Source: an uncultured Candidatus Saccharibacteria bacterium (GTDB lineage Bacteria; Patescibacteriota; Minisyncoccia; Phycocordibacterales; UBA12088). From it: a stretch of DNA of 40,646 nt. Positions 15,682 through 40,646 of the stretch are shown in pieces (positions within the stretch are counted from its first letter, which is position 1; each line of letters opens with the position of its first letter). The stretch is taken from the NCBI GenBank assembly GCA_964521185.1, contig CAZFRC010000001.1:73023-113668 (forward strand). The letters are read 5' to 3'. The position numbers were made by a program, and so were the translations under genes. Below the pieces are notes generated by a model. It did no database searches, was not told where the DNA came from, and saw nothing but the letters and a program-made list of their open reading frames with translations.

Positions 15682-16529
15682 GGTGACGAAGAAGGCTCAT
15701 CTAAGAGCGGTGTAATTTCAACAGCGCTTCCTTTGATAATTCCCACCACGCGTGTGACGAGCATGTTTGAAAGCTCGCTTCCAAACAACGTCTGAAATGC
15801 ATCAGCAGGATCTGATTTGCTTGCCTCAATTACCGTGAGTGCATGATCCGGCACACGAGGGAGAAATACGGGAGTGCCGACAGGAATCATTATCTCCTTA
15901 GGAAGTACAAGTTCGAAACTGCCGGCTCCTCGACCTTGGAGCGTAGCCGGAGGTCCTTCAATGCCTATTATCACTTCAGTTTCTACTCCAGAAGCAGAAA
16001 ATAATCGTACCGTAGAGCTGTGCTGATACACGCGAAGTATGGCGCCTACTAGAATCCCATTCTCAGCGATGACTAATTCTCCTAATTGAAGCGAATCATC
16101 CGCCCCTTTATCAATAATGATTGTACCAAATGGATATCCAAGCGGTCCCGCTATTACCTTCGCAAGCACGACTGTGCTATTTTCTTTAATCGATCCGAAT
16201 CGTTCCAGAGCGAGCGCATACATGTCCCGTTCGGCCTTGAGAAGGACATTTTCCCCGGAAAGAGTTGAGAGACGCTTTGTAAGGTTTTGGTTCTCTCGGA
16301 CTAAAGATTGCTTAGAACGCAACAGTGATCCTTTCTCTGCTATAAATGATTTTGCATATTCCGCTCCAATAAAAAACGGTGTTCCAACAAAATGCACAAC
16401 AATTCCCATTGGTCGTTCAAGTTGCGGTAGTGCTATTAGAAATACCACACCAAGCAATACGCCGAGTATTTGAATTGTTCGAGTGCGAGAAGCACTACGG
16501 CCTAAGCGCAAGTTCTTCATCATGAGCAA
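15678..16529 (-). CDS. mreC: Rod shape-determining protein MreC
   Basis: TM, coiled coil (L..EN..L), IIIDKG, G.LVG beta domain; follows mreB. Confidence 0.88.
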   Translation of the reverse strand: MLMMKNLRLGRSASRTRTIQILGVLLGVVFLIALPQLERPMGIVVHFVGTPFFIGAEYAKSFIAEKGSLLRSKQSLVRENQNLTKRLSTLSGENVLLKAERDMYALALERFGSIKENSTVVLAKVIAGPLGYPFGTIIIDKGADDSLQLGELVIAENGILVGAILRVYQHSSTVRLFSASGVETEVIIGIEGPPATLQGRGAGSFELVLPKEIMIPVGTPVFLPRVPDHALTVIEASKSDPADAFQTLFGSELSNMLVTRVVGIIKGSAVEITPLLDEPSSSP

Positions 16530-17556
16530 TCAATACATCGCGATACATAGGAACATCTTCAAGAATAACACCGGCACCTCTCACTACGGCAGTCAGAGGA
16601 TCTTGTGGAACATAGACGGGGATTTTCAGTACTTCGGTCAAAAGCTCCGGCATGCCACGAATCAAAGCGCCTCCTCCGGCCAAATAGATGCCGCGCTGCA
16701 TGACATCCCCCACCACTTCAGGCGGTGTGGTTTCGAGGACTTCCTTAATGGCATCGATAAGGTTATCTATCGAATGCGATATGGCTTCCCGAATGTCTGC
16801 ATCGGTGATAACCACTTCGCGCGGAAGACCCGTTACCAGATCGCGTCCGCGCACCGGCGCCTCGATAGGAATTCCGTTTGATATGACCGAGCAAGTCGCT
16901 ATTTTTAATTCTTCAGCTGTTTTTTCCCCAATCAGAATTTTAAATTCGCTACGCACATAAGATGAGATATCGCTGTTTAATTTGTCACCGGCGATACGGA
17001 TATTTTTTGATCGTACAATGCCGCCAAGCGAGATCACGGCAATATCAGTAGTGCCTCCGCCAATATCAATGATCATATTGCCGACTGGAGAAAATACAGG
17101 CAACTTAATGCCGAGTGCTGCCGCCATTGGCTCTTCGACAATATGCACTTCGCGCGCGCCGGCGCTCGACGCAGCGTCGCGCACGGCGCGCGTCTCCACG
17201 TTGGTAATTCCCGACGGTACGCCAACCACCACTCGCGGTCCAAACAACAAGCGAGAGCCCATCTGCGCCTTTCGGATCAAATACGCAAGCATCTCTTCAG
17301 TCACTTCAAAATCAGAAATGACGCCATCAATAAGAGGACGAACTGCCGTGATATGGGTTGGCGTGCGTCCCAGCATGTCTTTGGCATCCTTCCCCACGGC
17401 AACCACCTGTCCAGTTTTTTGATTTACGGCAACCACCGACGGTTCGTTGATGATTATCCCTCTCCCTTTTACATACACCAACGTATTGGCAGTTCCGAGG
17501 TCAATCCCGATGTCGTTTCCAAAAGCGACGTTGAAGTGTTCGAAAATTTTTTTCAT
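16495..17556 (-). CDS. mreB: Rod shape-determining protein MreB (operon copy)
   Basis: IGIDLGTANT, EPSVVA, EEPMAAA, DIGGGTT, LAGGGAL. Confidence 0.97.
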   Translation of the reverse strand: MKKIFEHFNVAFGNDIGIDLGTANTLVYVKGRGIIINEPSVVAVNQKTGQVVAVGKDAKDMLGRTPTHITAVRPLIDGVISDFEVTEEMLAYLIRKAQMGSRLLFGPRVVVGVPSGITNVETRAVRDAASSAGAREVHIVEEPMAAALGIKLPVFSPVGNMIIDIGGGTTDIAVISLGGIVRSKNIRIAGDKLNSDISSYVRSEFKILIGEKTAEELKIATCSVISNGIPIEAPVRGRDLVTGLPREVVITDADIREAISHSIDNLIDAIKEVLETTPPEVVGDVMQRGIYLAGGGALIRGMPELLTEVLKIPVYVPQDPLTAVVRGAGVILEDVPMYRDVLIAHDEELALRP

Positions 17557-23186: not shown

Positions 23187-25850
23187 CTACGAAACAATGG
23201 GGACTATTTTTTTTGTCGAATTTGTAACATTGGCAAGAAACAGGATCCTGCGCGCATACGCAAATATGCTTTCTTCAGGATACGGCGACAGTGACGGAAG
23301 ATTACTCCCGTTTTTCAGTTCTTCCAAGAATTCTCGAATGATACGGAGTCGATTTGTATCCGCATTCTTAAAAGGTGATGACTCCGGAACTTCTGATCCC
23401 CCGAGCATAGAAGGTTTGCCAACACCGATTCCACCAAGTAGATTCAGGGTAGAATGTTTCATGACAAATTCGGCTCCTCCAGGTGTACGCGAAAGCATGT
23501 CAGGTGAATTTTGCAGTCCGACAAACGCAGTAACATATTCCCGATGATCATTCAGCTTTTTAAGTAATTCCACACCCGCTGATTTGATATTTTTTAGAAG
23601 GTCTATGCCAAGTATCTCATGACTTGTTTTAGAATTTTTCAACATTTCGATCGAATACACTGGGCCTTCATCCCCCATGCGTATAAGACGTACCCCGGAT
23701 ATAGGCTGTTCATGAAACATTTTGGTCGATGGATCGATCAACAAACTGTATTCCGGTATTTTGTACAGTTCTTTGAGAAATGTTTGTGGCGCAGAAGTGA
23801 TTGCAAACGGGTTTTCGGTCTTGGCATGAGGCGCTACGTTTGGCTGTTCTGCGTCGTTAGGATTAGGTTTTCTGAAAGGAATAATGTTCCCTCCATCTTC
23901 TGCTTTTGCGCTCATCGCTTTGACGTTCTCTTCGACTTCGTGTCCCCTTATGGCCGGATTCACTCCTTCATCTTGCATGATTACTCCCGCTGCACGCATA
24001 ACTGGCGCAAGATCAAGATTTCCGGATCGCACTTTTGTTGGTTCAACGCCAAGAATACTCCTTATATCTTCTTCGGAACGTCCATTCAAAAATTTCAAAA
24101 GGGATAATTTGTCCCGCAAAGGAATTCTCTTGTCCATTATAATAGCAGTAGAAATACCTCCCTCCCCAACCTCAATAATGAAAGTATCGGTTGTGCTTCG
24201 AGGTTCAGATTCTTCCTCGTGTGGCTTGAGATTCCCTGGGTCTTTTGTATCCAATCCAACAAACGGGTTCGGTTTTGCTGCAAAGATTACAGGTGGAGTA
24301 GAGACGGAGGGTTTTTCTTTTGTTGTTCCCCCCAATGTATCTTCTCCTCCGCCTCCCGCTAACACGTCCTGTCCGTGACCAATTTTACCCTCCGCAACAT
24401 GCGAAGATGTGGGATGTAAAACGGATGCGTCATGCCACCATTCTCCGAGTGCGTTCATCAGATTCTTAATTGGGGTAATGTCCAATAACAATTCTCTTAC
24501 GATCGTTCGGGCAACCTCTGGTCCAACAACAGGAGTAATTGCTCCTAGAGCGATCGACAACGCATACCGTCCACGTATAGACCGAAGCCCGTCTTTAATT
24601 TGATTTATTCTTTCTTGTCTCCATTGGATGAATTTATGGTCGGTAGGATCAACAATCTTGCGAGGACTCTCCGAGATACTTTTGAATATTTGTTCGAGTA
24701 TAACGCTTATACCTGCGGAAACGGCAATGCGTTTTCCTAACACCAACGCCGTTGCGGCTGCGGCGGTAGTAGGAGTGCCGACAACCATCAACCCGCCAGC
24801 GGTTAATCCCGCGGTAACCCCGAACGCGATCTTCCATTTAGCAGGTAACGCATTGTACCGTACTCCCATCTCCATCCATTTTCTAAATCCCCAACGGTCC
24901 AAAGAATGCGCCTCCCCTTCAAGCGCCGCCTTTCTTTGACCAATAAAATCGTTCACACCGTTTAAACCTTCTTCTCGAGAAGGTTGTTTCTGATCTGGAT
25001 TTTCGAGTCTTGCTAGTTGAGACTCCAGAGCCTCTCTTAATTTCTCTTTTTCAGTTCCTCCCTTCGTTCTCAAATATTGCTGTATGGATTCTTCGAATTG
25101 TTTTAACCAATCTGCTATCGTGATTCCATCAAATTCCTGCGGACCTCTACCTTTGCCCTTCGCAAGAATCTCTTTCGCTGCCTCGACGCGCTGTCTCCAG
25201 TTTCGCACACGTTCTTCATCCACAGATGCCATAAACACAAAAAACGCCCGTTCATGCTCTCTGAGCATGGTCTGTAAAGTATTTGTTGCTTCTAAAGAAA
25301 CCCTGGATGCACCATTTTCCTTTGAAAGTTCTGCTTCCAAGAATTCTATTGCTTTTCGAAACGCGATTATGCATGGATCATGGGAGTTACTATAGTTTCG
25401 CCAACGAGGATCGTCGTCCCCCAACTTCAATGTATCTTTTGTGAATTTTGCTTTTATCCATTGTTCCAACACATATCGTCCTTTTTCAGTAAGGATATTC
25501 AGTGTCAATTCCTCAGGATTGGATTCATCAGTTGGTGTTAGAACCTCCACCCCAGCAGAATCCCCCTCTGCAGGTGAATCTGTAGGAGGGTCTGGGAGTT
25601 TTTCGGCATCCCCTCTTTCGGCGTCTTCTCTTTGGGCTTCCCTTCGAAGAGCGGCAAGGACAAGTTCTCTTACGGGCACTCCTTGAATTTCTCCTGTAAG
25701 ATCGTGTATTTCTTTCGGGATTTCGTCTCTTCTAATTGCTTCCAGAATTTCCGGATTTTGCCTAAATGATTCAAGCAAGCCTATAACGCGTAGTACTAGG
25801 CTCTCTTGAGTTGGGTGGGATTCTGGATTAGGCGATGGTTGTTGGGTCAT
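23187..25850 (-). CDS. Large orphan (887 aa) with central hydrophobic hairpin
   Basis: Long ORF: helical N-half, Gly/Ala-rich hydrophobic segments at about aa 341-389 and 429-443, Pro-rich linkers. Confidence 0.85.
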   Translation of the reverse strand: MTQQPSPNPESHPTQESLVLRVIGLLESFRQNPEILEAIRRDEIPKEIHDLTGEIQGVPVRELVLAALRREAQREDAERGDAEKLPDPPTDSPAEGDSAGVEVLTPTDESNPEELTLNILTEKGRYVLEQWIKAKFTKDTLKLGDDDPRWRNYSNSHDPCIIAFRKAIEFLEAELSKENGASRVSLEATNTLQTMLREHERAFFVFMASVDEERVRNWRQRVEAAKEILAKGKGRGPQEFDGITIADWLKQFEESIQQYLRTKGGTEKEKLREALESQLARLENPDQKQPSREEGLNGVNDFIGQRKAALEGEAHSLDRWGFRKWMEMGVRYNALPAKWKIAFGVTAGLTAGGLMVVGTPTTAAAATALVLGKRIAVSAGISVILEQIFKSISESPRKIVDPTDHKFIQWRQERINQIKDGLRSIRGRYALSIALGAITPVVGPEVARTIVRELLLDITPIKNLMNALGEWWHDASVLHPTSSHVAEGKIGHGQDVLAGGGGEDTLGGTTKEKPSVSTPPVIFAAKPNPFVGLDTKDPGNLKPHEEESEPRSTTDTFIIEVGEGGISTAIIMDKRIPLRDKLSLLKFLNGRSEEDIRSILGVEPTKVRSGNLDLAPVMRAAGVIMQDEGVNPAIRGHEVEENVKAMSAKAEDGGNIIPFRKPNPNDAEQPNVAPHAKTENPFAITSAPQTFLKELYKIPEYSLLIDPSTKMFHEQPISGVRLIRMGDEGPVYSIEMLKNSKTSHEILGIDLLKNIKSAGVELLKKLNDHREYVTAFVGLQNSPDMLSRTPGGAEFVMKHSTLNLLGGIGVGKPSMLGGSEVPESSPFKNADTNRLRIIREFLEELKNGSNLPSLSPYPEESIFAYARRILFLANVTNSTKKIVPIVS

Positions 25851-25877
25851 GTTTCTAAAAGTGACAGTTGCATTGCA

Positions 25878-28373
25878 CTAAGATTTGTCCTCAATGTCTC
25901 TGGGTAATAATCTTCTCAATTCTCCTATAAGAGCACCGACCCCTTCTGCTGCAGCTCCCCTTAATGAATTTCCACGCATTTCAACAAATGCTTCGTGTAT
26001 CTTCTGTTCGAATATCCTAAGACTTTCTTCTGCTCTTTGGACCACTTCATAAAATTCTTTCCATGTCTGAGGGTTTTTACTGTTTATTAAGGGAGATTCT
26101 CCAATAAAACTGGAGAGATATCCTTTCCATGGATTAATGATCAAGCTCTGTATTTTACTCACCTCCTCACCCCACAGAGTAAGCAATTCCTGTTTCAACA
26201 CATCGTTCGGGATCCTTTTCAAAGCCGCTCCGACCGACGAACCGTCTGGGGTCAGTGTTGCCAATACATCCCGTGTCACTACACCCAAAAATTTCTCCAA
26301 TGCCAGGATTCTTTCAAGGCGTCTTCTTGCTTCTTCAATAGTTCCTTCCGTTCGCCTTATTCTCCTTTTAGGGCTGCTGTCCACCGGAGGGGTAGGAGCA
26401 GCTTTATTATCTATGTTCTTCCATTGATTATAGAGAACGGCGTATGCGCGTTCAAAAAAGTCAAGGTCCTCAGTGGTAATTACACGCCCTTCTCCCATTT
26501 TGTTATGAAGCTGGACCCGAATGTCGTAGAGCGTGTCCAGAGATTTCTTAAGATTTTCCACGTCTTGATTAGTTTCAGTCCCAATGTGTATCATCTGGTG
26601 CGCATAATCATTGAGTACTTCCACATTCTTGTTCGTAATACCGAAATATCTATAAACGGAGAGAATGAGCGAATCCGCTTTTGTTACTATGTGCGTATAC
26701 CTGTCCCTTTCGTCAAAATCTCCTCGATAAGCTCTATAGGGAAAAACTTCTGGTTGGGGCAATAACGTAGGAGATGGGGAATGCTTTGGTGACGCCAACC
26801 CACCACCCCCTTTTTTATTTTCGCTTCCTCCAGACTTATCTGTTCTAATTCCTAAATTCTCGGCATTCTTTGCTCGCATTTCCGAAAGCAAATTGTTAGC
26901 CAATTCGCGTATATCGACAGTAATTCCTTCTGTAGATAGTCTCTTCAGATGAAATATTGCCTCTGATTCAGGCAGTATACCGATTGTTTTTAGTGTTATT
27001 AATTGTAAAATAGCCGCGCGTGCTCTTATTGGCAAATCTTCCTTCAACAGAAGATTCAACTGTTCAAGTGGTATTCCTGGAGTTATTTGTTCAATCGTTA
27101 TGGAATCTCCCCCTGTTTCTGCTCCTCCTCGGTAAGGCGCTTTCTCTCTTTTTCCAGACGTTGCGTTTCCTTCGTTAGGCGCTGCCTTTCCTTTTTCAGA
27201 CGTCGCGCTTCCTACGTTAGGCGGTGCATCTGTTTTTTCAGACGTTGCCCTCGGCATACTTTTTCCCGAATTCGGATCCGAAGGAAGATTGTCTGGGGGT
27301 GGAACCTTTTTCTGTCTTGTATTACCGTATTGCTCTTCAAGCGTTTCAAGTATGCGTAATGCTTTTAAAATGCTCTCTGCACTTCTCCTTGGATCTTTTG
27401 TTTCAAGTCTTTGTGCGTTATCTAATTCATCAGTAATTCTTTCTAATGTCGCTTCTATCGAATGCCCGCGATTTGCGGCTCGTATCCGCACTTCTCGCAT
27501 TCTAGTCCGTATATCTGCGGGAGAAGGTCTCCCTTCAGCACCTCGAGGTTTTGCTGTTCCCCCTTGAGTTCCTGCACTAGGTTCTTTGGCGGGTCCGGAT
27601 GGCGTACGGGGTGGTAATAGATCTATCCCTGTATTTTCTTCTTGTAATAGAGGATGCAGGGGGATGTCTGGAATTGTTCCAGCAGGGTTATTTGAATCTT
27701 CTCTCCCTGGAGTTTCATAAAATCCTTCAAGTCTGTCGACCAATTCATTTAACCTTGTAAATTCTTCTTCATACTCCTTGACACCTTCCCTATCCCCATC
27801 TTCTTGCATTTGTTCAACAGTTTTAACTGTGCGAAGATCTTTCCATAAACCCCTTAGGTATGGGGAAAAATGCTCAAAATTGGAAATATATTCCTCCAAA
27901 AAATCTTTGCCGCCTTTTTTTGAAGAAATATCCCGAATTAATATGTATGCTTCATGAATTTTCGTAAGCATGGCGCGATGCGCACGTAAAATGTTTCGAT
28001 ATTCTTTAAGAGTGTTTTTGTAAAATTCCAACTTGTCTACATGCTTCTGAATTTCCTTTCTGGCATTCTCTAAGGCAGAAACCGAATCTATTGCCTCCCC
28101 TTCTTTGGAGGGAGAATTCAATGCACTGATGATTATACGAACAGACTGTTGTGTCTCTCTGAACAGTGCTTGGATCTCTATATCAAGATCGTCGTCAATC
28201 TTGTTTGGTTTAAATCCAATCGAACGCGCAAGATTATTTATGTCGTAGGAAAGTCTATCAAAAGATTCTTGGAATTTTTTTTTCAGTTCGGATACACTCT
28301 CCGCTTCCAACGATGGATTTTCTGAAAGTGAAGGACCTTTTGCTGGTATTTGAGATCTCATAATGATGAACAA
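25878..28373 (-). CDS. Large orphan (831 aa), coiled-coil/helical with low-complexity linkers
   Basis: Long ORF with no signal peptide or TM; internal 14-aa repeats. Confidence 0.85.
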   Translation of the reverse strand: MFIIMRSQIPAKGPSLSENPSLEAESVSELKKKFQESFDRLSYDINNLARSIGFKPNKIDDDLDIEIQALFRETQQSVRIIISALNSPSKEGEAIDSVSALENARKEIQKHVDKLEFYKNTLKEYRNILRAHRAMLTKIHEAYILIRDISSKKGGKDFLEEYISNFEHFSPYLRGLWKDLRTVKTVEQMQEDGDREGVKEYEEEFTRLNELVDRLEGFYETPGREDSNNPAGTIPDIPLHPLLQEENTGIDLLPPRTPSGPAKEPSAGTQGGTAKPRGAEGRPSPADIRTRMREVRIRAANRGHSIEATLERITDELDNAQRLETKDPRRSAESILKALRILETLEEQYGNTRQKKVPPPDNLPSDPNSGKSMPRATSEKTDAPPNVGSATSEKGKAAPNEGNATSGKREKAPYRGGAETGGDSITIEQITPGIPLEQLNLLLKEDLPIRARAAILQLITLKTIGILPESEAIFHLKRLSTEGITVDIRELANNLLSEMRAKNAENLGIRTDKSGGSENKKGGGGLASPKHSPSPTLLPQPEVFPYRAYRGDFDERDRYTHIVTKADSLILSVYRYFGITNKNVEVLNDYAHQMIHIGTETNQDVENLKKSLDTLYDIRVQLHNKMGEGRVITTEDLDFFERAYAVLYNQWKNIDNKAAPTPPVDSSPKRRIRRTEGTIEEARRRLERILALEKFLGVVTRDVLATLTPDGSSVGAALKRIPNDVLKQELLTLWGEEVSKIQSLIINPWKGYLSSFIGESPLINSKNPQTWKEFYEVVQRAEESLRIFEQKIHEAFVEMRGNSLRGAAAEGVGALIGELRRLLPRDIEDKS
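27123..27248 (-). repeat. Three imperfect 42-bp tandem repeats
   Basis: Encode ATSEKTDAPPNVGS / ATSEKGKAAPNEGN / ATSGKREKAPYRGG. Confidence 0.85.
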
Positions 28374-28443
28374 TACAATGATGCAATACGCTTGAAGAAA
28401 CTGGTTCTATGCGGAATACCCGGCTCGTGCATGTTTTTTTCTT

Positions 28444-28935
28444 CTATGTGTTTGGGTCAATGGTGTTCTGTTTTTTTTCTACATCTAAAAATGCTTTCAG
28501 GTTCTCGTAAAAAATTTCCGCTTCTGAATGATTTCCCATTTGGAGAGCGCCTAGATATTTTGCCCATGCCGTCGGAAAATCCCCCCAACCATGGAGGGGG
28601 CCAGAATTATATCCGTAGTTAATTGAAATGACCTTTTGATTTGAACTGCGGGGCGCCCTTCTTCCTTCTGGATTTTCTTGAATCCGCAATGCGGATGTCA
28701 ATGCTTTTGGTGTATTGCCAAACAATCTACGTATTATGGAACGAGCCAATGCTTCCAATTGGTTTTTTTTATTCTGTGCTTCCGATGTTTCCCCCCGTGC
28801 GAGAAGTTCAGTGTTAGCTCTGGAACCCCCATCAGATGGAGTAAATGGAACTCCTGCCTCTCCTAATGCACGTTCGAAATCCGTCAGATCGAAAAATCTT
28901 TCGTGTCTATTTTCTTCTTGTCTTTCGTGTGTCAT
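28444..28935 (-). CDS. Hypothetical protein (163 aa)
   Basis: Co-oriented ORF 43 nt downstream of the ATPase gene. Confidence 0.7.
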   Translation of the reverse strand: MTHERQEENRHERFFDLTDFERALGEAGVPFTPSDGGSRANTELLARGETSEAQNKKNQLEALARSIIRRLFGNTPKALTSALRIQENPEGRRAPRSSNQKVISINYGYNSGPLHGWGDFPTAWAKYLGALQMGNHSEAEIFYENLKAFLDVEKKQNTIDPNT

Positions 28936-28978: not shown

Positions 28979-31789
28979 TCATTCTTCTCCAAAGATCTCG
29001 TGGTGTGGTAATTGCGGTTTCCGATATCGCTTATCAATTCCTTCTTCCACATCTTCGCGGCGACGTCCGTATTTAAGGTATGAAAATTGCTTAAGCAGCT
29101 CAATCTGCTCAGGATTTCCCTGCCTTGGAGCAAGGGTCTGGATATTAAACGGTTTCATCAGTTTTCCTTCGGCAAGCAGTTTTACATACGCGTTTCGATT
29201 ATCGAGATTCATGATGTCGGACGCGGAAAACGTGGGAGCGAATTGGGGTTCGACAAATTTTGCGTCTTCAGATGAAATACGAAATACTGCCATGGACCCC
29301 ACGTTTCCAAATACCGCGTCACGGATATTTTCTTGAAGTTGGGCGATGAATTGGTGGGCGACCGTGAGCCCCAGTTTATATTTGCGCGCCTCGGAAAGAA
29401 TTGAGGAAATCGAATCAGTGGTGATATTTTGGAATTCATCGATATACAGGTAAAACGGTGGCATTTCTTTACTGGTGCCAAACGCGTCGACGCGTGACAG
29501 TGCGGCCATAAGAATCTTGCCGACAATAATGAGTCCTATGAGATTTGCGTTGATATCGCCCAGACGCCCTTTGGAAAGGTTCACAAGAAGTATGTTCTTA
29601 TTATCCATGATGTCACGGAACCGGAAGGCTGACTTTTCTTGTGCAATGATGGGTCGCATATACTCGTTCGCGGTAAACACATCGAACTTGTTTGTAATGT
29701 ACGGCACTATATTAGCGAGAGACGCTTCTCCCTGCGCCTTGGTTGCAATTTCTTCCCAAAATTGTTTGACCACAGGATTTCTCGCTTTTGATAATTTTAA
29801 CGCACGATATCCAGAATCCGCCAACACTCTCGACACATCAAGAAGGGTGGTGCCGCTTTCCTGATCTTCAAGCACAAGCATCGTGGCGTTTCGAAAATAC
29901 TGCTCAAAGGCGGGACCCATTGATTCGGGAACCGCTCCGTAGAGTTTCCTGAATATAGAGAAAAGCTCGTTAACTACAAAAGTTTTTTGTTCCGGAAATT
30001 TCGGATCGAATTCGAGCATATTGAGTCCAAACACTCGATCAAGGTATGACGGATCAAAATAAATCACGTCCTCAAAGCGCGATTCAGGAATTGCGGCAAG
30101 CACGTCCTGCACGTCGCTTCCGTGAGGGTCAATAAAACATACCCCGTCTCCCCGTTCGATATCCTGCATGATCATGTTCTTGAGGAGCACTGTTTTTCCT
30201 ACTCCGGTTTGCCCAATAACGTAAAAGTGCCGCAATCGGTCCATCGGCGTTATGTACGCCTTGGTTTCCGTGCCACGATACATATTGACGCCGAGCAACG
30301 TGCCTTCATTTGGAAGTCCGATCGGTGCAGGACCGCCACCCGCTTTCGCCTGTTTAAATTCATGCGCGCCGCCAATGCCGGCAATTGGAAAATGCATGAG
30401 CGTCGATAATTCGCGAATTGATAACGGAATTTCTTCGTTTGGTGAAAAAGCACGGAAGGAGTAACTTCGAGAAAACTCAAGAATTTTATTGGCGGGAACA
30501 CGATTAAACAACATACGGTTCCCCGACGTGTTTTCAAATTGACTGAACGCCGATTCGATGTCTCGCAAAATATCGTCAGCGCGCTGTGTGTCACGCGCCG
30601 ACACGATAATACGGATGTTTGCGCCAAAAATTGGGGTTTCGACTTTTTTCCTGATTGACTCGACTTTCGCCTCATCGGTTCGATTATCAGTCTTAGTCTT
30701 TTCTTTTTGTTCAGGCGAAGTTGGCAGTAATACGTCGCGAACCGCCTCAGACATGCCTACCCAAACACTCCCCAACATTGAGGTCGATTCTTTGTATGCG
30801 TCATCCAATTTTTTCCCTTTTCCAATTTTTTCAAGCACCGTTTTATATTGAGACAAATATTGGTTGGCGTGCGGATTGATAACCACCTGAAGGGTCGCCC
30901 CCACGCCTTCTTTGTCGATTTTTGAAAAGGCATTAAGAAGGACAGTGAACGGATCGGTGTCAAAATCGAGATATGTCTTTATGGGAAATATCGGTTTCTC
31001 CTTAAGGGTGGCTTTTGCCGCAGCGGTAAATCCTTCGGGAATAAAAATATTGTAATCAGCGCGCTGCTCTTCAAGACGGGCGTGCGGGTAGAGCGAAAGA
31101 AGTTGTTTTTCAAACAAGCCCTTCCGGTGCGTGGGGATGGCTACGTAAAAAATGATTTCTTCGCCGACATCCGCCACAGATACCTCAAGAGCAAACACGT
31201 TTGATCTGGTATCTTTTGGGTCAACGGAAGAAAGGCCCGCGTAAAATTGCTCCATGACGGATACGAGCTCTTTGAGCGATTTTGCTTTAGTTTCTTCATC
31301 GCGTATTTCCGGCATCGCGACTTCGAAAAGTGTCATATGAAGATTGTTCCAAAGCGGCGTTTTTTCTTTAAGACCCTGCGTGGGGTAGCCGGCACGAATA
31401 TATTCGATCAAAAAACGGTGAAAATCATCAGTCACATGGGCATTCTGAAGCCGTTCGACAACTTGAAGCGCATTATAGATGCCCTTTTGCTGCATCACCC
31501 CAAGAAGTTCCGCCATGGTTTGGTCGTGTGCTTCGGGGGGAAGATCAAGCACGATTTGATCGAGTTCGTGCGTTTTAAGGGCATACTGTTCTGCAAGTAC
31601 TTCGTCGGAGCGTTTTTTTGTATAGAGATTGAGAACATTTTGAATAAGTCCGCCGCGTTCGGCATGGGATATTTCATTCTTGCCAGGATTCGTAAGTTCG
31701 AATTCTTTGAGAGCAACCTGTTCGCGCAGATATTTCACCTCCTCCTCGATGGAAGCGAACTTAGGCTCATGCTCCTTAAAGGTTTGCAT
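28979..31789 (-). CDS. VirD4/TraG/TraD-like (FtsK-HerA superfamily) ATPase
   Basis: RLRHFYVIGQTGVGKT (Walker A), FIDPHG, YLYIDEFQN (Walker B), LSEARKY, AHQF, AVFGNVG; about 500-aa N-terminal extension; no obvious TM. Confidence 0.9.
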   Translation of the reverse strand: MQTFKEHEPKFASIEEEVKYLREQVALKEFELTNPGKNEISHAERGGLIQNVLNLYTKKRSDEVLAEQYALKTHELDQIVLDLPPEAHDQTMAELLGVMQQKGIYNALQVVERLQNAHVTDDFHRFLIEYIRAGYPTQGLKEKTPLWNNLHMTLFEVAMPEIRDEETKAKSLKELVSVMEQFYAGLSSVDPKDTRSNVFALEVSVADVGEEIIFYVAIPTHRKGLFEKQLLSLYPHARLEEQRADYNIFIPEGFTAAAKATLKEKPIFPIKTYLDFDTDPFTVLLNAFSKIDKEGVGATLQVVINPHANQYLSQYKTVLEKIGKGKKLDDAYKESTSMLGSVWVGMSEAVRDVLLPTSPEQKEKTKTDNRTDEAKVESIRKKVETPIFGANIRIIVSARDTQRADDILRDIESAFSQFENTSGNRMLFNRVPANKILEFSRSYSFRAFSPNEEIPLSIRELSTLMHFPIAGIGGAHEFKQAKAGGGPAPIGLPNEGTLLGVNMYRGTETKAYITPMDRLRHFYVIGQTGVGKTVLLKNMIMQDIERGDGVCFIDPHGSDVQDVLAAIPESRFEDVIYFDPSYLDRVFGLNMLEFDPKFPEQKTFVVNELFSIFRKLYGAVPESMGPAFEQYFRNATMLVLEDQESGTTLLDVSRVLADSGYRALKLSKARNPVVKQFWEEIATKAQGEASLANIVPYITNKFDVFTANEYMRPIIAQEKSAFRFRDIMDNKNILLVNLSKGRLGDINANLIGLIIVGKILMAALSRVDAFGTSKEMPPFYLYIDEFQNITTDSISSILSEARKYKLGLTVAHQFIAQLQENIRDAVFGNVGSMAVFRISSEDAKFVEPQFAPTFSASDIMNLDNRNAYVKLLAEGKLMKPFNIQTLAPRQGNPEQIELLKQFSYLKYGRRREDVEEGIDKRYRKPQLPHHEIFGEE

Positions 31790-31894: not shown

Positions 31895-33370
31895 ATGCAC
31901 GAGCAGGGTCCCAAAAATGAATCGAGCCGACGGAAATTCTTGGTTGGAATGATTGGCGTTGGCGCGGCAGGGGCGCTTGGAGTGGTCGCCGAACGTATGG
32001 ATAGCGAAAGACGTTTGTCCGAAGCTGTCGATATCCTTCGTAAAGGAAAAGGGGCTCTCACACTGGATGTGGAAGGCAGACAAATTACAGTACATCGCGA
32101 AGATCTGATTAATACAGTAAAAGAGATCATCGACAGCCGAATTAATGCAGGTTTCCCGAGCGTGTCTCCCGAAGATATTAGCCATATCACAGACTCGTTT
32201 GGCACGATGATTGAAGTTGAACACACTTCCAGCAACGGAACGAAGCAACAGCTTGGAAGAATGGCGGAATATGCCGGAATTGCCAAGACGTATGGAATTT
32301 CTCAATTACACCCAGACACCGCAAAAACGGTATTCCTCAAATACAGAAAAACATTAATACAAAAGGGATTCATTTCGGAGGATGTTGTCGCGCGCGTACA
32401 AAAAGAAACAGATCCCCAGAATCTTATAAACCTTCTTCAGATTACCGAAGATATGGGATTAGTGCTTGGCCTCTTGTATTTTTACGAGATGTACAATCTC
32501 TACGGACGAGACAGTAGTGGCAATCTGCATGCCAACCGAGAGCAGTATCCGTATGAATATGGTCTTGCGGTCGCGGCATATAGCAGTACGCCACGTGCAC
32601 CCGCGGTGGCACAACTTCAAAATGAATTAAATGAACGTATTATATTTGAAACTCTTTTTAAATCTCCACCGTCAGAAGATTCTAGAAAAAAACTCGAAAC
32701 AATAACACTTTTAGAGGTTGATGGAGATCTCGGAGGATTGACCCTTGCGCTTGCTAGAGAAAATAATATTAATACAGCGATCCTCGCAGGAGGAATAAAC
32801 GATCCTGAATTTCCTCAGAAACTGCGTGAATTTTCAAGAGAAGTGCTCAAATTAAGAGCGTATTCCGACGAGGCATTATCTCAAATACTTATCGAGCCAT
32901 TTGAAGAGGCATCCCCTTCTCAAAATCTCAAAAGGAGAATGGCGGCATCTGCTCTCTATCGTATAGCGGAAAATCGATATTCTGTGGCAATTCTCGTATA
33001 CAACCGACTCAAAAACGCCGCAAAAAATAATGAAGGGGCAAAAAATAATGCCCGTAGCGCCTTCATGAATTTTATAGAAGACAGAGATCCTTATTTATTA
33101 AAAACTCTCACTCGACCAAAAGAGTTCGATAACATGATGCGCGAAGAAGGAGGGACATGGAAAAAATATATGAGATCAGTAGGAAAAGCGTTCCTAGAAG
33201 AAAGAGCGCGCGGCGCGCATTACAGCGGCACTGTACCAACCGCCTATAAAGACCCTTGGTTACAAAAACCAAGGAATATTATGGGGCGTGTACTAAAGGG
33301 GATGCTCCTTGACGAAAAATCTTTAAAAGAGAATCCAGAGATTCCCAAGTTAATCAATGAGAAATATTAA
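31895..33370 (+). CDS. Membrane-anchored/exported protein with divergent lytic transglycosylase and PG-binding-like domains
   Basis: SRRKFL plus a hydrophobic segment; TMIEVEH, YGISQLHPDTA, LAVAAYSSTP; VAQLQNELN...LEVDGDLGGLT. Confidence 0.65.
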   Translation: MHEQGPKNESSRRKFLVGMIGVGAAGALGVVAERMDSERRLSEAVDILRKGKGALTLDVEGRQITVHREDLINTVKEIIDSRINAGFPSVSPEDISHITDSFGTMIEVEHTSSNGTKQQLGRMAEYAGIAKTYGISQLHPDTAKTVFLKYRKTLIQKGFISEDVVARVQKETDPQNLINLLQITEDMGLVLGLLYFYEMYNLYGRDSSGNLHANREQYPYEYGLAVAAYSSTPRAPAVAQLQNELNERIIFETLFKSPPSEDSRKKLETITLLEVDGDLGGLTLALARENNINTAILAGGINDPEFPQKLREFSREVLKLRAYSDEALSQILIEPFEEASPSQNLKRRMAASALYRIAENRYSVAILVYNRLKNAAKNNEGAKNNARSAFMNFIEDRDPYLLKTLTRPKEFDNMMREEGGTWKKYMRSVGKAFLEERARGAHYSGTVPTAYKDPWLQKPRNIMGRVLKGMLLDEKSLKENPEIPKLINEKY

Positions 33371-33423: not shown

Positions 33424-34437
33424 CTAACGCTTTGCGATAATGCTTTTTTTATAGATATCCAAATGTTTAAGCGCGATACCAGTTCCTTTCACCACGCAAA
33501 ATGGAGCGTCTTTTGCCAAAACCGCCTTTACTCCCGTTCGGCGAAGTACTAATTCCGGAAAATGCCGCAGCAGTGAGGAACCGCCCGTCATGATGATTCC
33601 GTAATCAATAATATCGGACGCGAGTTCGGGAGGGGTCTCCTGAAGCACGTCTTTAATGGCTTTGATCATTTCTCGAAGGTCGCGCGAAATCGCCCTCATA
33701 ATTTCATTCGTTTTCACTTCAGCTGTTCGAGGAAGTCCCGATAATAAATCGCGACCTTTCACCGTTATCGAGAGTTCTTCGTCAACGGGTACTGCGCTTC
33801 CCACTTTAATTTTAATATCTTCCGCAGTCTTATCACCAATCGCGAGATTGTAGGTTTTTTTTACATAATCGGCGATCGCGTGGTCAAGCCGGTTACCCGC
33901 ACACTTCACTGATGTAGACGCGACAATGCCGCCCAAAGAAATAACGGCGACATCAATAGTGCCTCCGCCCACATCGACAATCATGTGCCCGCGCGGCTCA
34001 TGGATGGGAATGCCGGCGCCTATTGCCGCTAGAATAGGTTCCTTCACCACATAAGCGTTCTTCGCTCCGGCTTTTATTGCAGCCTCTATAACCGCCCGTC
34101 TCTCAGTTGATGTCACTCCTGCGGGAACAGAAACAAGCACGTCGGGTCGAAATATATTCCATTTGGGAAGCGATTTCCGAATGTAATACCGAAGCATTGC
34201 TTCCGTAACTCGATAATCGGCAATCACTCCGTCTTTCATGGGCCGATACGCAATGATTGATTCCGGGGTGCGGCCGATCATTTCTTTGGCATCGTTCCCC
34301 ACCGCAAGGATTTTCTTATCGGTTTCAGATACTGCCACCACCGACGGCTCGTTGAGCACCACCCCTTTCCCCGGCAAAAACACAAGGGTCGTGGTGGTGC
34401 CCAAATCAATCCCGAGTTTTGGCGAGAAAAATGACAT
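33424..34437 (-). CDS. mreB: Second MreB/Mbl paralog
   Basis: LGIDLGT, NEPSVVA, KEPILAAIGAG, DVGGGT, MTGGSSLL. Confidence 0.95.
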   Translation of the reverse strand: MSFFSPKLGIDLGTTTTLVFLPGKGVVLNEPSVVAVSETDKKILAVGNDAKEMIGRTPESIIAYRPMKDGVIADYRVTEAMLRYYIRKSLPKWNIFRPDVLVSVPAGVTSTERRAVIEAAIKAGAKNAYVVKEPILAAIGAGIPIHEPRGHMIVDVGGGTIDVAVISLGGIVASTSVKCAGNRLDHAIADYVKKTYNLAIGDKTAEDIKIKVGSAVPVDEELSITVKGRDLLSGLPRTAEVKTNEIMRAISRDLREMIKAIKDVLQETPPELASDIIDYGIIMTGGSSLLRHFPELVLRRTGVKAVLAKDAPFCVVKGTGIALKHLDIYKKSIIAKR

Positions 34438-34627: not shown

Positions 34628-36379
34628 TTAGGCAGACGATGTGGGTGGAATAGATGGTTTAGGGGAATAACTGACATCATCATCAACGAGTTGGAGTGGT
34701 TTTCCAGAAAACCCTTTGAGATCAATGCGCGGCGCGATAACCACGGGATTCGATGAAGAAATATTTCCTTCCAACTGAAACACATCCCCAAGTGTCGTCG
34801 GTCGAGATTTCCCGCTCGGATCTTTGCCGCCTGAGACCATCATGGCATTAAATTCATTTCCTTCAGGAATGAAATCCTTGCTGTAACCAACCTGCCCATA
34901 TTCGGCGAGAGCAATCATGACAGGCGGTTTACCTAATTTCTTCCCTTCCGATAAGGCATACCATTCTTTATAGAAATTTTGTATAAAATTCGAGGAATAA
35001 CACGAGCCCAAAATTATAATGTCGGGAACGGTTGTGTTTGTTCTTTTTCGCACACGATGTTTACTGTGTTCGACAAACGCATGCGCCAATGTTGATGGAT
35101 CAATGCCAATGGGGTTGTCGATATCCTGCGAATCATCAAAAATGCGCACGGTACCGAGATTAAGAACACCGGTCGATTCGTCACCGTGCCCGTCATAATA
35201 AAACGTTATCGGATACGCAGACGACCTTACCCATTCCAAAGCATTTTGTATGGTTGCAACAGCGCCAAATTTTGAATCGGGTGGTACCTGTACTTCGAGG
35301 CGTTTCGGATGTTCTGCTTTAAGAGCCGAGACGAAAGAGTCCGTGCCAAAACGTTTCTTCCCGTCTTCCCACGTCTCTTTCGACGCAAGGAGAAGAACTT
35401 CGCGCCCCTTAAACAGGGGCATCGAATGCAACGCTTTTCTAGTCTCCTGTATTTCTTTCGCCGTCCGACTAATCATTTCTTTAGTAATCTGATTTGGATC
35501 AGTGACTCCTTCAAAATAGAGCGCTCGTGCAATCATAAGCCGTGCTTCTTCGGGCGAAATAGAGGTAGGGGGAATTCTATCGGGAACGGATATATCGGGT
35601 ATCCAGTCAGGAGGAATACCCGGAACGAGAACGAAGGCTGGATCGCTTAGAAGCCCTTCCGGTTGATCACCTACATCAGGTATGAGGGAACGTTTCAATA
35701 CTGCGAATGGGACTGTCTCCTCTGGATCTTTCAATAGTTCTTTTCTTCGCTCTATGGCTGCTTCAAAAAATGCTTGAGGGCGAGGTCTTATTTCTTCCAA
35801 TTTTTCAATTAAATTCTCTAAATTACGTAGACGCTTGGATTTGGGAATTAATTCTAAAGCCTCCAGCAACCAATCAATTGCCTTGGTATGGTTTGCGATC
35901 GAAGGAGTAAGGATAAAATAATTAACAAAATCCTGAGGATAAACTCGAAGAAGTTTTTCGACAACACTTGGGGTTACCTGCAAAAACCCAGATTGTATAT
36001 CCAAGTAATACCACTTTAGTAATACCTTCTCTAAAATTTCATGAGACACGTCTCCTGTAGCATTAGATGTAGTAAGAAAATCGATTACCACAGATTCTTT
36101 TTCTTGGGATTCTAAAGATCCCCATTTTTCTAAAAGAAAATATGCAGGGTCTTTTATGAACATATCGACGAGTTCTTTTCTTCGCATTTCCTTTTCTACA
36201 CTTTCAGACGACGTCGTATCTGACCAACCTATCGTAAGGTCCGGAGAGGACGCGAGCATCATTCCAGCAAGCCCGGCCGATACCAATGCGGCTGCATTAC
36301 GTGCTTTGGAAGATCGACCAGAACGACGTTTCTGATTAGGACTATATTGATTCGGTAACTGTTCGTTTCCACGGATCAT
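34628..36379 (-). CDS. Exported/anchored protein with C-terminal clan CD (caspase-like) peptidase domain
   Basis: Basic N-region plus hydrophobic segment; ITFYYDGHG (H398) and DIIILGSCYS (C460). Confidence 0.7.
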   Translation of the reverse strand: MIRGNEQLPNQYSPNQKRRSGRSSKARNAAALVSAGLAGMMLASSPDLTIGWSDTTSSESVEKEMRRKELVDMFIKDPAYFLLEKWGSLESQEKESVVIDFLTTSNATGDVSHEILEKVLLKWYYLDIQSGFLQVTPSVVEKLLRVYPQDFVNYFILTPSIANHTKAIDWLLEALELIPKSKRLRNLENLIEKLEEIRPRPQAFFEAAIERRKELLKDPEETVPFAVLKRSLIPDVGDQPEGLLSDPAFVLVPGIPPDWIPDISVPDRIPPTSISPEEARLMIARALYFEGVTDPNQITKEMISRTAKEIQETRKALHSMPLFKGREVLLLASKETWEDGKKRFGTDSFVSALKAEHPKRLEVQVPPDSKFGAVATIQNALEWVRSSAYPITFYYDGHGDESTGVLNLGTVRIFDDSQDIDNPIGIDPSTLAHAFVEHSKHRVRKRTNTTVPDIIILGSCYSSNFIQNFYKEWYALSEGKKLGKPPVMIALAEYGQVGYSKDFIPEGNEFNAMMVSGGKDPSGKSRPTTLGDVFQLEGNISSSNPVVIAPRIDLKGFSGKPLQLVDDDVSYSPKPSIPPTSSA

Positions 36380-37998: not shown

Positions 37999-39906
37999 AT
38001 GTACCTCATTCACGCCCATCCGATTTCGCGCGGAATTTCAAACGACGAACTGACCTATTTTTCAAGCGAGACCTATCCGGAAGGTGCGCTTATTTTTGTC
38101 CCCCTTCGATCTAAGATTGTGCCGGCGCTTGTGGTGCAATCAGAGCGCGTGTCTGATGCCAAGGCGAGTATTCGAAGCGCCGATTTTGCGATTCGAAAAG
38201 TTGCCAAGCGCGCCCCCCGCTTTCTATTTTCTTCAGGAACGATTCGCGCGCTTCAAAAGGTCTCCAACTGGCACGCATCATCCCTTGGCGCGATTCTGTC
38301 TGAGGTGGTGCCGCGCGGATCGATCGAAAACGCAAAACGAACGCCAATCATTGAATACGGAACCAAGGGAGGCGCATCAATCGAGCGCGTTGCGTTTCAA
38401 GGGACAATGACGGAGCGGTTTGAAGAATATCGAAATCTTGTCCGTGAAGAATTTGCAAAAAAACGCTCGGTGTTGCTTCTCGCGCCAACGCGAAGAGAGT
38501 CGGAAGCCCTTGCGCAATATCTTGCGCGCGGCATTTCAGAATACACATTTTTGCTCCATGGAGGATTGCCGGCTACGTTGTTTCGCGAGCAATGGAGCGG
38601 CGCGCACAACAGCGCGCATCCTGTGCTCATTATCGGTACGCCATCTTCTGTGGCGCTTCCTCGGCACGATATCGGCACCATTATCATAGAACGGGAAACG
38701 GCGACGACGTGGCGGCGCGACACCCGACCCTATATTGATTTTCGCATTGTTGCGGAAGAAATTGCGAACGAATACGGCGCACGTTTTTTGGTTGCTGATA
38801 TGCCCCTTCGTATTGAGACGGTATACCGCATGAACGCGCGCGAATTTGAAGAACGAGGAATCCGAAAAACACGCGTATCTTCGCCCCCTGAGATGAGACT
38901 CATCGACGCGAGACCTCGTATACGAAAAGAACTCGAGCAGGTTTCCCCCAGACGTGAAAGATTCAGAGCGATTCATCCGGAGCTTGCGCACACAATTCAA
39001 AAAATGATTCAAAAACCATCGCGTGTGTTTTTGTTCGCGGCGCGGCGAGGGCTTGCGCCGATTACGGTGTGTGATGATTGCGGAAGCCCCGTGGTGGATG
39101 ACGCAACAGGGCTACCAGTTGTGCTCCATAAAAGCGCGAGAGGAAACGTGTTCGTATGTCATGCGAGCGGCACGGTTCGGAGCGCGAATGAACGTTGCCG
39201 ATTTTGCGGATCATGGAAATTATCCACACTCGGTATCGGCGCAGAATTGGTAGAAGAAGAAGCAAGAGAGCGTTTTCCGGATGTACCGGTGTTTTCAATT
39301 ACCAAGGATTCGACGCCGAAAGAAAAAGAAGCGGAGAAAACCGCGCGGCGCTTCAAAGAAGCGCCGCGCGCAATCCTTGTTGGTACCGAGCTTGCTCTTT
39401 CGTATCTCCCGGACGCCCTCACGCTCTCCGCAGTCGTGTCTCTTGATTCCCTCCTCTCTGCTCCAGAGTGGAATATCCATGACAGAATTTTCAGCATTCT
39501 CATGCGAATTCGCGAACGGACAGAAGAAGCCATGATTATTCAAACGCGACAACCGGAACGTTCGGTAGTTATCGAAGCTGTGGGAGGTGCAATTGCCGAT
39601 TATTACAAAACAGAGCTCAATGACAGGAGACGCTTCGGATATCCTCCGTTTAGTACATTGATCAAAATATCATGTGTAGGGAGCAAAGAACGAGTCTCAA
39701 AAAGACTCTCTGAGGTTGAAACAATGCTTTTGCCTTTTACACTCTCCGGCCACACCCACGTGATGAATCTTCCAAAAGGAAGGAGCGTCATCCACGGATT
39801 TATCCGGCTTCCCCAACACGAATGGGTGCGTGAGGATTTGCTGGAAAAAATTCGTTTGCTGCCGCCAGATATCGCGGTAACCATAAACCCAGATAGTATT
39901 TTGTAG
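37999..39906 (+). CDS. priA: Primosomal protein N' (PriA), degenerate helicase motifs
   Basis: 3'-DNA-binding N-terminus (LTYF...VPLR), IGTPSS, RRGLAP-VCDDCG, CRFCGS, ILVGT, QTRQPE, RRRFGYPPF. Confidence 0.88.
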   Translation: MYLIHAHPISRGISNDELTYFSSETYPEGALIFVPLRSKIVPALVVQSERVSDAKASIRSADFAIRKVAKRAPRFLFSSGTIRALQKVSNWHASSLGAILSEVVPRGSIENAKRTPIIEYGTKGGASIERVAFQGTMTERFEEYRNLVREEFAKKRSVLLLAPTRRESEALAQYLARGISEYTFLLHGGLPATLFREQWSGAHNSAHPVLIIGTPSSVALPRHDIGTIIIERETATTWRRDTRPYIDFRIVAEEIANEYGARFLVADMPLRIETVYRMNAREFEERGIRKTRVSSPPEMRLIDARPRIRKELEQVSPRRERFRAIHPELAHTIQKMIQKPSRVFLFAARRGLAPITVCDDCGSPVVDDATGLPVVLHKSARGNVFVCHASGTVRSANERCRFCGSWKLSTLGIGAELVEEEARERFPDVPVFSITKDSTPKEKEAEKTARRFKEAPRAILVGTELALSYLPDALTLSAVVSLDSLLSAPEWNIHDRIFSILMRIRERTEEAMIIQTRQPERSVVIEAVGGAIADYYKTELNDRRRFGYPPFSTLIKISCVGSKERVSKRLSEVETMLLPFTLSGHTHVMNLPKGRSVIHGFIRLPQHEWVREDLLEKIRLLPPDIAVTINPDSIL

Positions 39907-39915
39907 CATTTCTGC

Positions 39916-40646
39916 CTATGGACACCGTCCGCCATTTTCTTGACATGCTCGAATAGATCGTATTCTATCAACACCTCGACGCGTCTCTTTGAATCCTATA
40001 TTTTCTCTGCACCCTGGTGGCGTTGGTTCTACTTGGTAACAACCCTTTGTGTCCCAGGGGCAAGCGTATTTCATGACCCCAGCAGGACAATGCTCGCTTT
40101 GTTCGAGCGCGTTGCTCTTAAGTCCCGCATTATACAGAGGATAGAAACGAGCCGGATCATTACTTCCAGCTGTCTCGATAGTCTTTTTTAAATAAAATGC
40201 GGTGGCTCTTGTGTTGTTTTGAGGATTTGCCAACCAACCTTTAAGCCTTTCGTCGTCAGTAACTATATCGGACGGTATGCCTAATTCTCTTGCATACGTT
40301 TTGGCGTTAGTAAGAAGCACTTGTCCAAGGCCTACGGCTTCGGTTTTATTATTATAAGCACCAGCCACCCCCGAAGATTCAGTCATAATGAGTGCCTGAA
40401 GAATATTCTCATCAACTCCAAATTCTTTAGCTGCGGCAGCAATCGCTTGTTGATGAAGCTGTAATTGAAAATTTAATCGATTATACTCTCCCTGGGTAAC
40501 AGCTACATGTTTAACATTGGGATCAAATCCAATAATTCCTCCCCCGCCTACCAAACCTCCTCCGGAACTTGAAGAAATTGATGATCCCATTGGCACCTCC
40601 CTCTTGACCGGCGCTCCTGCTCTGCAGAGAATGGTGTTCCATGGCC
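39916..40646 (-). CDS. SLT lytic transglycosylase domain protein with Cys-rich tail (5'-truncated)
   Basis: LQALIMTESSG (catalytic Glu), AVGLGQV, YNAG. The frame stays open to the window edge (PWNTILCRAGAPVKREVPMG). Confidence 0.85.
   Translation of the reverse strand, partial: PWNTILCRAGAPVKREVPMGSSISSSSGGGLVGGGGIIGFDPNVKHVAVTQGEYNRLNFQLQLHQQAIAAAAKEFGVDENILQALIMTESSGVAGAYNNKTEAVGLGQVLLTNAKTYARELGIPSDIVTDDERLKGWLANPQNNTRATAFYLKKTIETAGSNDPARFYPLYNAGLKSNALEQSEHCPAGVMKYACPWDTKGCYQVEPTPPGCRENIGFKETRRGVDRIRSIRACQENGGRCP

Follow-up and report, generated by a model that had tools for sequence, protein, structure and literature searches.

The question raised by this locus is what kind of protein is encoded by an un-annotated 491-AA open reading frame (ORF) at 31895-33370 on the + strand of a 40,646-nucleotide stretch of DNA from an uncultured Candidatus Saccharibacteria bacterium (GCA_964521185.1), and whether the short motifs recognizable in its product point to an enzyme acting on the cell wall. 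We refer to the whole of this stretch as the window and to the ORF product as the target. Patescibacteria have tiny genomes and many un-annotated envelope proteins. Our results indicate that the target belongs to a rare family that lacks annotation and is most likely an exported enzyme, very far diverged, that cuts the cell wall and also carries a module for binding to it. In searches with the single sequence no family of Pfam or NCBIfam reached its threshold, a weak match to TAT_signal being all that was seen, and there was no phmmer match among PDB sequences and no relative in a scan of the genome collection. A word-indexed protein search returned only the query, whether the target sequence or its family alignment was used.

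An earlier description of this DNA, made from its letters and hereafter called the sequence-only reading, had seen here a cryptic lytic transglycosylase of the SLT family joined to a peptidoglycan-binding domain behind a twin-arginine-like N-terminus. The ORF and all motif strings which it quoted are present, in the order and with the numbering that it gave: SRRKFL at residues 11-16, TMIEVEH at 104-110 (its second Glu being E109), YGISQLHPDTA at 133-143, LLQITEDMGLVLGLLYF at 180-196, LAVAAYSSTP at 224-233, VAQLQNELN at 238-246 and LEVDGDLGGLT at 273-283.

The family of the target was collected with HMMER, by searching 1.84 billion (1.84e9) protein cluster representatives (50% identity) exhaustively at E ≤ 0.001. 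It consists of 20 representatives, 15 of them at E ≤ 1e-10, which are mostly 470-620 AA long and about 25% identical to the target. In their alignment E109 and G134 are invariant (20/20 each), and Q137 (18/20), T142 (17/20), A143 (19/20) and Y229 (19/20) are conserved in most members. L181, Y203, L224, P236 and Q242 are invariant too (20/20 for both Q242 and L224), position 183 is Leu in 19/20, and toward the end of the motif series D276, G277, G280 and T283 are found in 18/19, 19/19, 18/19 and 16/19 members, respectively. The family consensus reads M.EVED.FG ... ASSFG.GQINP.TA ... N.V.SFL.F ... LAVAAYSA..SP..AK.QTYLNE ... L.VDGD.G..T, and one relative, P0005, has literal AAYNAG and VDGDFG. 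The motifs are thus not chance features of one sequence. The key residues singled out by the sequence-only reading proved to be the most conserved columns of the family, and their colinear set matches the SLT profile significantly (see below), which bears out its claim that the motifs go beyond chance. The family seems to be confined to ultrasmall bacteria, the taxonomic placement covering the window and one relative. It is also rare (20 clusters), and its general importance is therefore limited.

Profile-profile comparison with hhalign pointed to a probable SLT/GH23-like catalytic core at residues 88-236 (32156-32602, + strand), with insertions between motifs I and II, II and III, and III and IV. 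The SLT reference comprised 13 sequences, namely E. coli Slt70, EmtA, MltC, MltD and MltF together with eight plasmid SLT proteins, three of which adjoin genes for coupling proteins of type IV secretion systems (T4SS), one of the three also VirB2 and VirB4. SLT domains were additionally sought, to enlarge the reference, in 80 Patescibacteria loci carrying homologues of the ATPase gene that neighbours the target, and none were found. Against the 13 domains, with no window sequences included, the family core aligned over about 64-68 columns with a probability of 78% and an E of 1.8e-5; a second HH tool gave 80.1% and 1.4e-5, and the full-length family 59% and 9.3e-5. Addition of the true SLT domain of the window as the fourteenth reference raised the values for the core to 91% and 1e-6. 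Motifs II-IV were colinear in the 13-reference alignment, G.GQINP.TA pairing with GLMQv.P.TA, N.V.SFL.F with NI..G..YL and LAVAAYSA with laaYNaG. In target terms, motif II (YGISQLHPDTA, 32291-32323, consensus FG.GQINP.TA) fell on the SLT GLMQ..P.TA in every hhalign run, the motif III helix LLQITEDMGLVLGLLYF (32432-32482) aligned to L.DP..NI..G..YL through its NI..G..YL helix, and motif IV (LAVAAYSSTP, 32564-32593) to AAYNAG, all on the + strand.

The observed score of 37.8 was reached by none of 100 column shuffles (11.1 ± 1.9, maximum 17.0) and by none of 100 block shuffles, in which 8-column blocks kept the motifs and scrambled their order (19.7 ± 3.8, maximum 30.7). The reversed family alignment scored 9.2 against the same references, other segments of the family gave P of 0.27-0.77, and six decoy profiles gave P ≥ 0.07 in both directions. 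We accepted the positive hhalign result after it had held with the window-free 13-sequence reference, with the second HH tool and against the shuffle, reversal and decoy nulls. The default local alignment ends before motif I because a variable insertion of 10-27 residues, modelled at a predicted local distance difference test (pLDDT) of 56-58, separates motifs I and II. Under global or relaxed-gap alignment MIEVED.F was placed on ii..ES.f and E109 on the SLT catalytic Glu, with a relaxed-gap score of 63.8, whereas the highest null scores were 49.3 in the column shuffle and 47.8 in the block shuffle. When the motif I segment was compared with the N-terminal part of SLT alone, the pairing of E109 with the catalytic Glu was again the best match (P = 0.011). 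The invariance of E109 (motif I, TMIEVEH; codon at 32219-32221, + strand) and these alignments mark it as the proposed catalytic general acid. Weaker signals came from single relatives: P0005 has a sub-threshold Pfam SLT match at AAYNAG (E 0.0053, 16.8 bits vs. a cutoff of 21.3), and P0010 a sub-threshold match to DUF1402 at FGFGQINPYTA. At the profile level, remote homology of the core to SLT/GH23 is thus probable, though not proven.

The alignment-based AlphaFold model of the target had a pLDDT of 83.1 and a predicted template modelling score (pTM) of 0.85; the single-sequence model (pLDDT 42) was not usable. Apart from residues 111-130 the core is modelled at pLDDT 86-95. Helix 92-113 carries E109 near its C-terminal end, 4 residues before the helix ends, and motif II forms a small beta hairpin (at 133/138, bearing G..Q) and then a helix (140-149, P.TA), which are followed by a long helix at 186-203 and by a helix at 219-230 (AAY). 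The order of these modelled elements fits an SLT core with insertions.

The segment at residues 235-300 (VAQLQNELN ... LEVDGDLGGLT; 32597-32794, + strand) resembles a PG_binding_1 module. The target alone gave no match to PG_binding_1 (PF01471), which has a gathering threshold of 23 bits. The family consensus over residues 232-300 scored 22.6 bits vs. this cutoff of 23 (E 1.3e-4, profile positions 2-45 of 57), and several relatives had sub-threshold matches to PG_binding_1 or PG_binding_3 at the DG..G..T helix, two of them at E 0.008-0.02. The PF01471 feature of a D-G-x-x-G-x-x-T loop and helix following an amphipathic 'V..LQ..L' helix is present in the family (Q242, D276, G277, G280, T283). 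Comparison of the segment profile with all PDB sequences gave 14 matches at E ≤ 10, and 10 of these 14 were peptidoglycan enzymes matched at their own DG.(F/I)G..T: the 4nso effector (the best, E 0.0024), the 7rum endolysin, 1lbu, SltB3 (twice), YcbB/LdtD, an ErfK-family protein, SleB and phiKZ gp144 (twice). Most of these ten enzymes are known to carry PG_binding_1 domains. With hhalign the segment matched the single E. coli LdtD peptidoglycan-binding domain at P = 8.5e-4. A tblastn search of phages with the LdtD domain returned near-identical mycobacteriophage LysA only, which was unusable as a diverse reference. The PG_binding_1-like reading is well supported by these profile comparisons and is formally below threshold. 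By score, the target belongs to neither PF01464 nor PF01471.

The target begins with a putative twin-arginine-type signal peptide or membrane anchor (residues 11-33; 31925-31993, + strand), in which SRRKFL precedes a Gly/Ala-rich stretch. This is the single hydrophobic stretch after the RR motif (residues ~14-32), in line with the N-terminus described by the sequence-only reading. Its matches are below threshold, both to Pfam TAT_signal (PF10518; E 0.0037, 17.6 bits vs. a cutoff of 22.7) and to TIGR01409 (11.9 bits vs. 16.7). Among the 18 N-terminally complete family members R12 is found in 18 and R13 in 16, and in 15 the pattern RR.[FVILM][FVILM] precedes a hydrophobic stretch rich in Gly/Ala. 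Sub-threshold TAT_signal matches occur in 6/20 members, and two match UCR_Fe-S_N (PF10399), the signal of the Rieske Fe-S subunit for twin-arginine translocation (Tat). Rieske Tat signals are often uncleaved anchors. Tat-type export or anchoring of the target is plausible from these patterns; a literature search on Tat in Patescibacteria found nothing relevant. At the other end of the protein, the C-terminal region (residues 301-491; 32795-33367, + strand) is all-helical and conserved across the family, with near-invariant R361, Y362 and G445. It gave no family or structure match in Pfam, PDB sequences or Foldseek. In the AlphaFold model it consists of confident helices, and from the pTM of 0.85 it is predicted to pack against the core.

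The gene of the target is divergent, as the sequence-only reading had noted, from a gene for a VirD4/TraD-like ATPase of 936 AA (28979-31789, − strand) with weak, consistent TraD/VirD4/TrwB-type matches, and 105 bp separate the two. A scan of the borders of the target gene for promoters and terminators gave nothing informative. The TraD, TrwB and T4SS-DNA_transf matches of the ATPase are confined to its C-terminal half, and the precomputed annotation of the collection also lists DUF8128. Relatives of the ATPase, 52-58% identical to it, number at least 496 in genomes of Patescibacteria (Parcubacteria/Paceibacterota and others), and by these the window is assigned to that group. In 0/80 of the Patescibacteria loci examined did a member of the target family lie within ~6 kb of the ATPase homologue, and the neighbours of the ATPase are not syntenic across related loci. 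In GCA_015491245.1 a family member is found on contig WFWH01000013 and the ATPase on WFWH01000007. A published survey counted 5,713 VirD4-like T4SS coupling protein (T4CP) homologues in 2,918 Patescibacteria genomes, of which 148 are near virB4, and suggested exaptation; the same study notes the rarity of canonical VirB1 homologues in this group and considers that other glycosidases might take their place (PMC12102498). As a widespread orphan homologue of T4CP, the neighbouring ATPase fits the possibly exapted T4CP of that report.

Among the annotated ORFs of the window there is no VirB4, VirB2 or VirB6 and no T4SS gene other than the one for the T4CP-like ATPase, and none of the neighbourhoods of eight other family members contains a T4SS gene beside the member. 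The neighbours of these eight are housekeeping genes and include DnaB/RecR/MraY, TrpRS/RNase J, RNase J, pyrophosphatases, GyrB/thymidine kinase, and MurD-like and MurC-like ligases, the latter two adjoining P0014. RNase J is the sole recurring neighbour among the nine family contexts; its gene follows the family gene convergently in P0003 and P0008 (L003, 9586-11472; L101, 2992-4710). The window itself is rich in genes of the cell wall and elongasome, namely a Mur ligase, two penicillin-binding protein (PBP) transpeptidases, MraW, MreC, two MreB, MurA and a canonical SLT protein. The target lies here in a dcw/mre-type region, not far from MurA and directly beside one of the MreB paralogues. 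The sequence-only reading had inferred a VirB1-like role in opening the host wall. This part found no support, because the ATPase is an orphan unlinked to the family, the members have no T4SS neighbours and the window is a cell-wall region. The tempting link of the target to type IV secretion is thereby corrected. The other part of the same proposal, a highly diverged surface muramidase, agrees with the SLT/GH23-like core found by profile-profile comparison, the PG_binding_1-like module and the conserved RR N-terminus.

The reading that we favor, and hold to be probable, is that the target is an exported peptidoglycan-active enzyme with a twin-arginine N-terminus, a diverged SLT/GH23-like core and a PG_binding_1-like module, which may act on the wall of its own cell. 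The twin-arginine-type N-terminus would export the protein through the cytoplasmic membrane or hold it there as an anchor, and the PG_binding_1-like module (235-300) would hold it on murein. The core (~88-236) would then cleave the bond between N-acetylmuramic acid and N-acetylglucosamine in the manner of family-1 lytic transglycosylases, the invariant E109 being its only general acid. The lining of the groove for the substrate would include Q137 and Y229. The helical C-terminal region (301-491), packed on the core, may guide the substrate or have a regulatory role. The genomic setting suggests that the enzyme would remodel its own cell wall and would not serve a T4SS. This is the more economical guess; the neighbourhood is too little conserved to establish it, and the own-wall role rests on 2-3 of the nine neighbourhoods since context is not conserved among relatives. 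If this reading is true, the target represents an unrecognised type of murein-cleaving enzyme in the Patescibacterial cell-wall toolkit, one that current libraries of hidden Markov models (HMMs) and Foldseek miss, and E109 is a concrete candidate for its catalytic residue.

Several results weigh against the favored reading. The gathering threshold of Pfam SLT (21.3 bits) was reached by neither the target nor any relative nor the family-core consensus, P0005 coming closest. NCBIfam and PHROGs make no SLT call, and the family HMM, full-length or core-only, found no lytic transglycosylase with its core among PDB sequences. With just the five E. coli SLT domains as the reference hhalign gave P = 0.13 and aligned motif II alone; as 13-14 references gave a significant match, the outcome depends on the diversity of the reference. 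The family has not kept the Ser of the SLT 'ES' (that column reads S in 2/20 and D in 10/20), and the motif I alignment requires bridging of the 10-27-residue insertion. The ORFs annotated in the window (40.6 kb) include no tatA/tatC or other tat genes, and gene context is not conserved across the relatives. The Foldseek comparison proposed by the sequence-only reading was run, without a positive control, on the confident full-length model and found no lysozyme-like match, and neither PDB nor BFVD yielded a hit at E ≤ 0.001. Its best E was 0.16 with template modelling scores ≤ 0.16, and this multi-domain, all-helical query produced long, all-helical junk alignments with root-mean-square deviations of 20-40 Å. 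We regard the Foldseek null as evidence against a canonical fold that is not decisive, and its conflict with the profile result stands.

Some of these results are what would be expected if the target had a new all-helical envelope fold that is not homologous to SLT, its motifs being convergent or coincidental and its function at most peptidoglycan binding or scaffolding via DG..G..T. We consider this unlikely. The absence of a significant structural match for a model with a pLDDT of 83 and a pTM of 0.85, the HMM-vs-sequence searches that always stayed sub-threshold, the non-significant hhalign result with the five E. coli references alone and the loss of the ES dyad would all be explained by it. 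Yet it leaves unexplained a colinear match of three motifs which becomes stronger with a diverse reference and exceeds all shuffle, reversal and decoy controls, and an invariant acidic residue that lands exactly on the SLT catalytic Glu. Retention of E109, G134 and Q137 (18/20) at ~25% identity implies an active site, and the Foldseek test on which this explanation leans had no positive control and gave long junk alignments. A related idea takes the Foldseek null as real and not as a lapse of sensitivity: the target would be a new peptidoglycan-active fold, or an SLT core remodelled past recognition with a novel helical domain fused to it, that is restricted to Patescibacteria, Tat-exported and used to breach the host wall where episymbiont and host meet. 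We give this little credence.

The same conserved residues bear on whether the target could be a catalytically dead SLT-derived domain, which would only bind murein or have a regulatory role, for instance by placing some other enzyme or a complex linked to MreB. Such a protein would account for the lost Ser that normally follows the catalytic Glu and for the large insertions in the core, and the adjacent MreB paralogue in this genome would suit it. Pseudo-enzymes usually lose catalytic and groove residues of this kind, but E109 is invariant and the groove equivalents Q137 and Y229 are nearly so despite ~25% identity, and we find a dead domain quite improbable. A VirB1-like transglycosylase that partners the divergent VirD4-like ATPase and opens the own or host wall for a T4SS or DNA transfer is, in our view, very improbable. 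It draws on the divergent layout with the 105-bp intergenic region beside a T4CP-like ATPase, on genuine VirB1-type SLT genes that adjoin T4CP genes on plasmids, and on the proposal that other glycosidases might replace the rare VirB1 in Patescibacteria (PMC12102498). Against it, the gene of the ATPase is core-like in Patescibacteria (at least 496 relatives), with a family member at 0/80 loci and non-syntenic neighbours, and only 148 of the 5,713 Patescibacterial T4CP homologues lie near virB4, the gene being possibly exapted (PMC12102498). Furthermore, VirB4, VirB2 and VirB6 are absent from the window, 0/8 other members lie by a T4SS gene, and GCA_015491245.1 carries the ATPase on one contig and the family member on another.

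If the target is indeed a diverged, exported wall-cutting enzyme, its closest counterparts would be the family-1 lytic transglycosylases (PF01464, GH23; the Slt70 C-domain, MltC, MltD, MltE/EmtA, MltF). With these it has in common the order of four motifs, i.e., a putative helix-end Glu, a G-x-x-Q..P-x-T-A hairpin and helix, an N..G..YL-type helix and an AAY-x-[AG] helix, as well as one invariant acidic residue where the catalytic one is predicted. Unlike them, it falls below every HMM threshold and is not recognized by Foldseek. Motif I is separated from II by a variable insertion of 10-27 residues, II from III by three additional short helices, and III from IV by an additional hairpin. The family shows E-[D/x] in place of ES, and the target adds a conserved helical C-terminal region of ~190 residues with no known relative. 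The proposed combination of a lytic transglycosylase with PG_binding_1 is found in phiKZ gp144 and SltB3, the latter of the Slt35/SLT_2 type. The peptidoglycan-binding profile of the family picks up both gp144 (9xps, 3bkh) and SltB3 (5anz, 5ao8), weakly (E 0.2-2.3) and at the DG.xG..T helix only. In gp144 the peptidoglycan-binding motif lies near the N-terminus (~43-70 of 260-268 residues), whereas in the target it follows the catalytic core. VirB1-type transglycosylases have an SLT-like core in common with the target, which in one genome adjoins a T4CP-like ATPase; in contrast to them, the target has no T4SS cluster and its linkage to the ATPase is not conserved. The true VirB1-type proteins used for comparison are 148-236 AA long and match an SLT HMM built from the five E. 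coli SLT domains and the SLT of the window at E 1e-17 to 1e-28, whereas the target has no match to it.

The window's own canonical SLT-domain protein (226 AA; 39916-40596, − strand), with a Cys-rich C-terminal tail, offers a comparison within the same genome. It is likewise diverged, with zero relatives in the word-indexed protein search and zero phmmer matches in PDB. Nevertheless, it matches Pfam SLT at E 5e-12 and the 13 references in hhalign with a probability of 96% and an E of 1.6e-9. It has no pairwise similarity to the target, and BLASTP between the two gave no match.

Further features of the window lie around these genes. The MreB paralogues, at 16495-17556 and 33424-34437 (− strand), are two copies in 40 kb of a reduced genome; one belongs to an mreB-mreC-PBP2 arrangement, and the other is isolated and convergent with the target gene. 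Downstream of the ATPase gene and on the same strand are three consecutive ORFs of 887, 831 and 163 AA (23187-28935, − strand), which have no Pfam family above cut-off, with two sub-threshold matches for the 831-AA ORF; their relatives stand beside ATPase homologues in 1, 0 and 0 of the 80 loci, respectively. A 635-AA ORF (37999-39906, + strand) has no Pfam family, and relatives of it occur in 4/80 of the Patescibacteria ATPase loci. The product of 34628-36379 (− strand; 583 AA) has a hydrophobic segment at its N-terminus and likewise no Pfam family; in its C-terminal half 'YYDGHGDESTG' and 'IIILGSCYSS' bear a tentative resemblance to the His-Gly/Cys dyad of caspase- or clostripain-like peptidases. 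Finally, the lysyl-tRNA synthetase encoded at 11494-13089 (− strand) is of the class I type (PF01921), the less common bacterial form.

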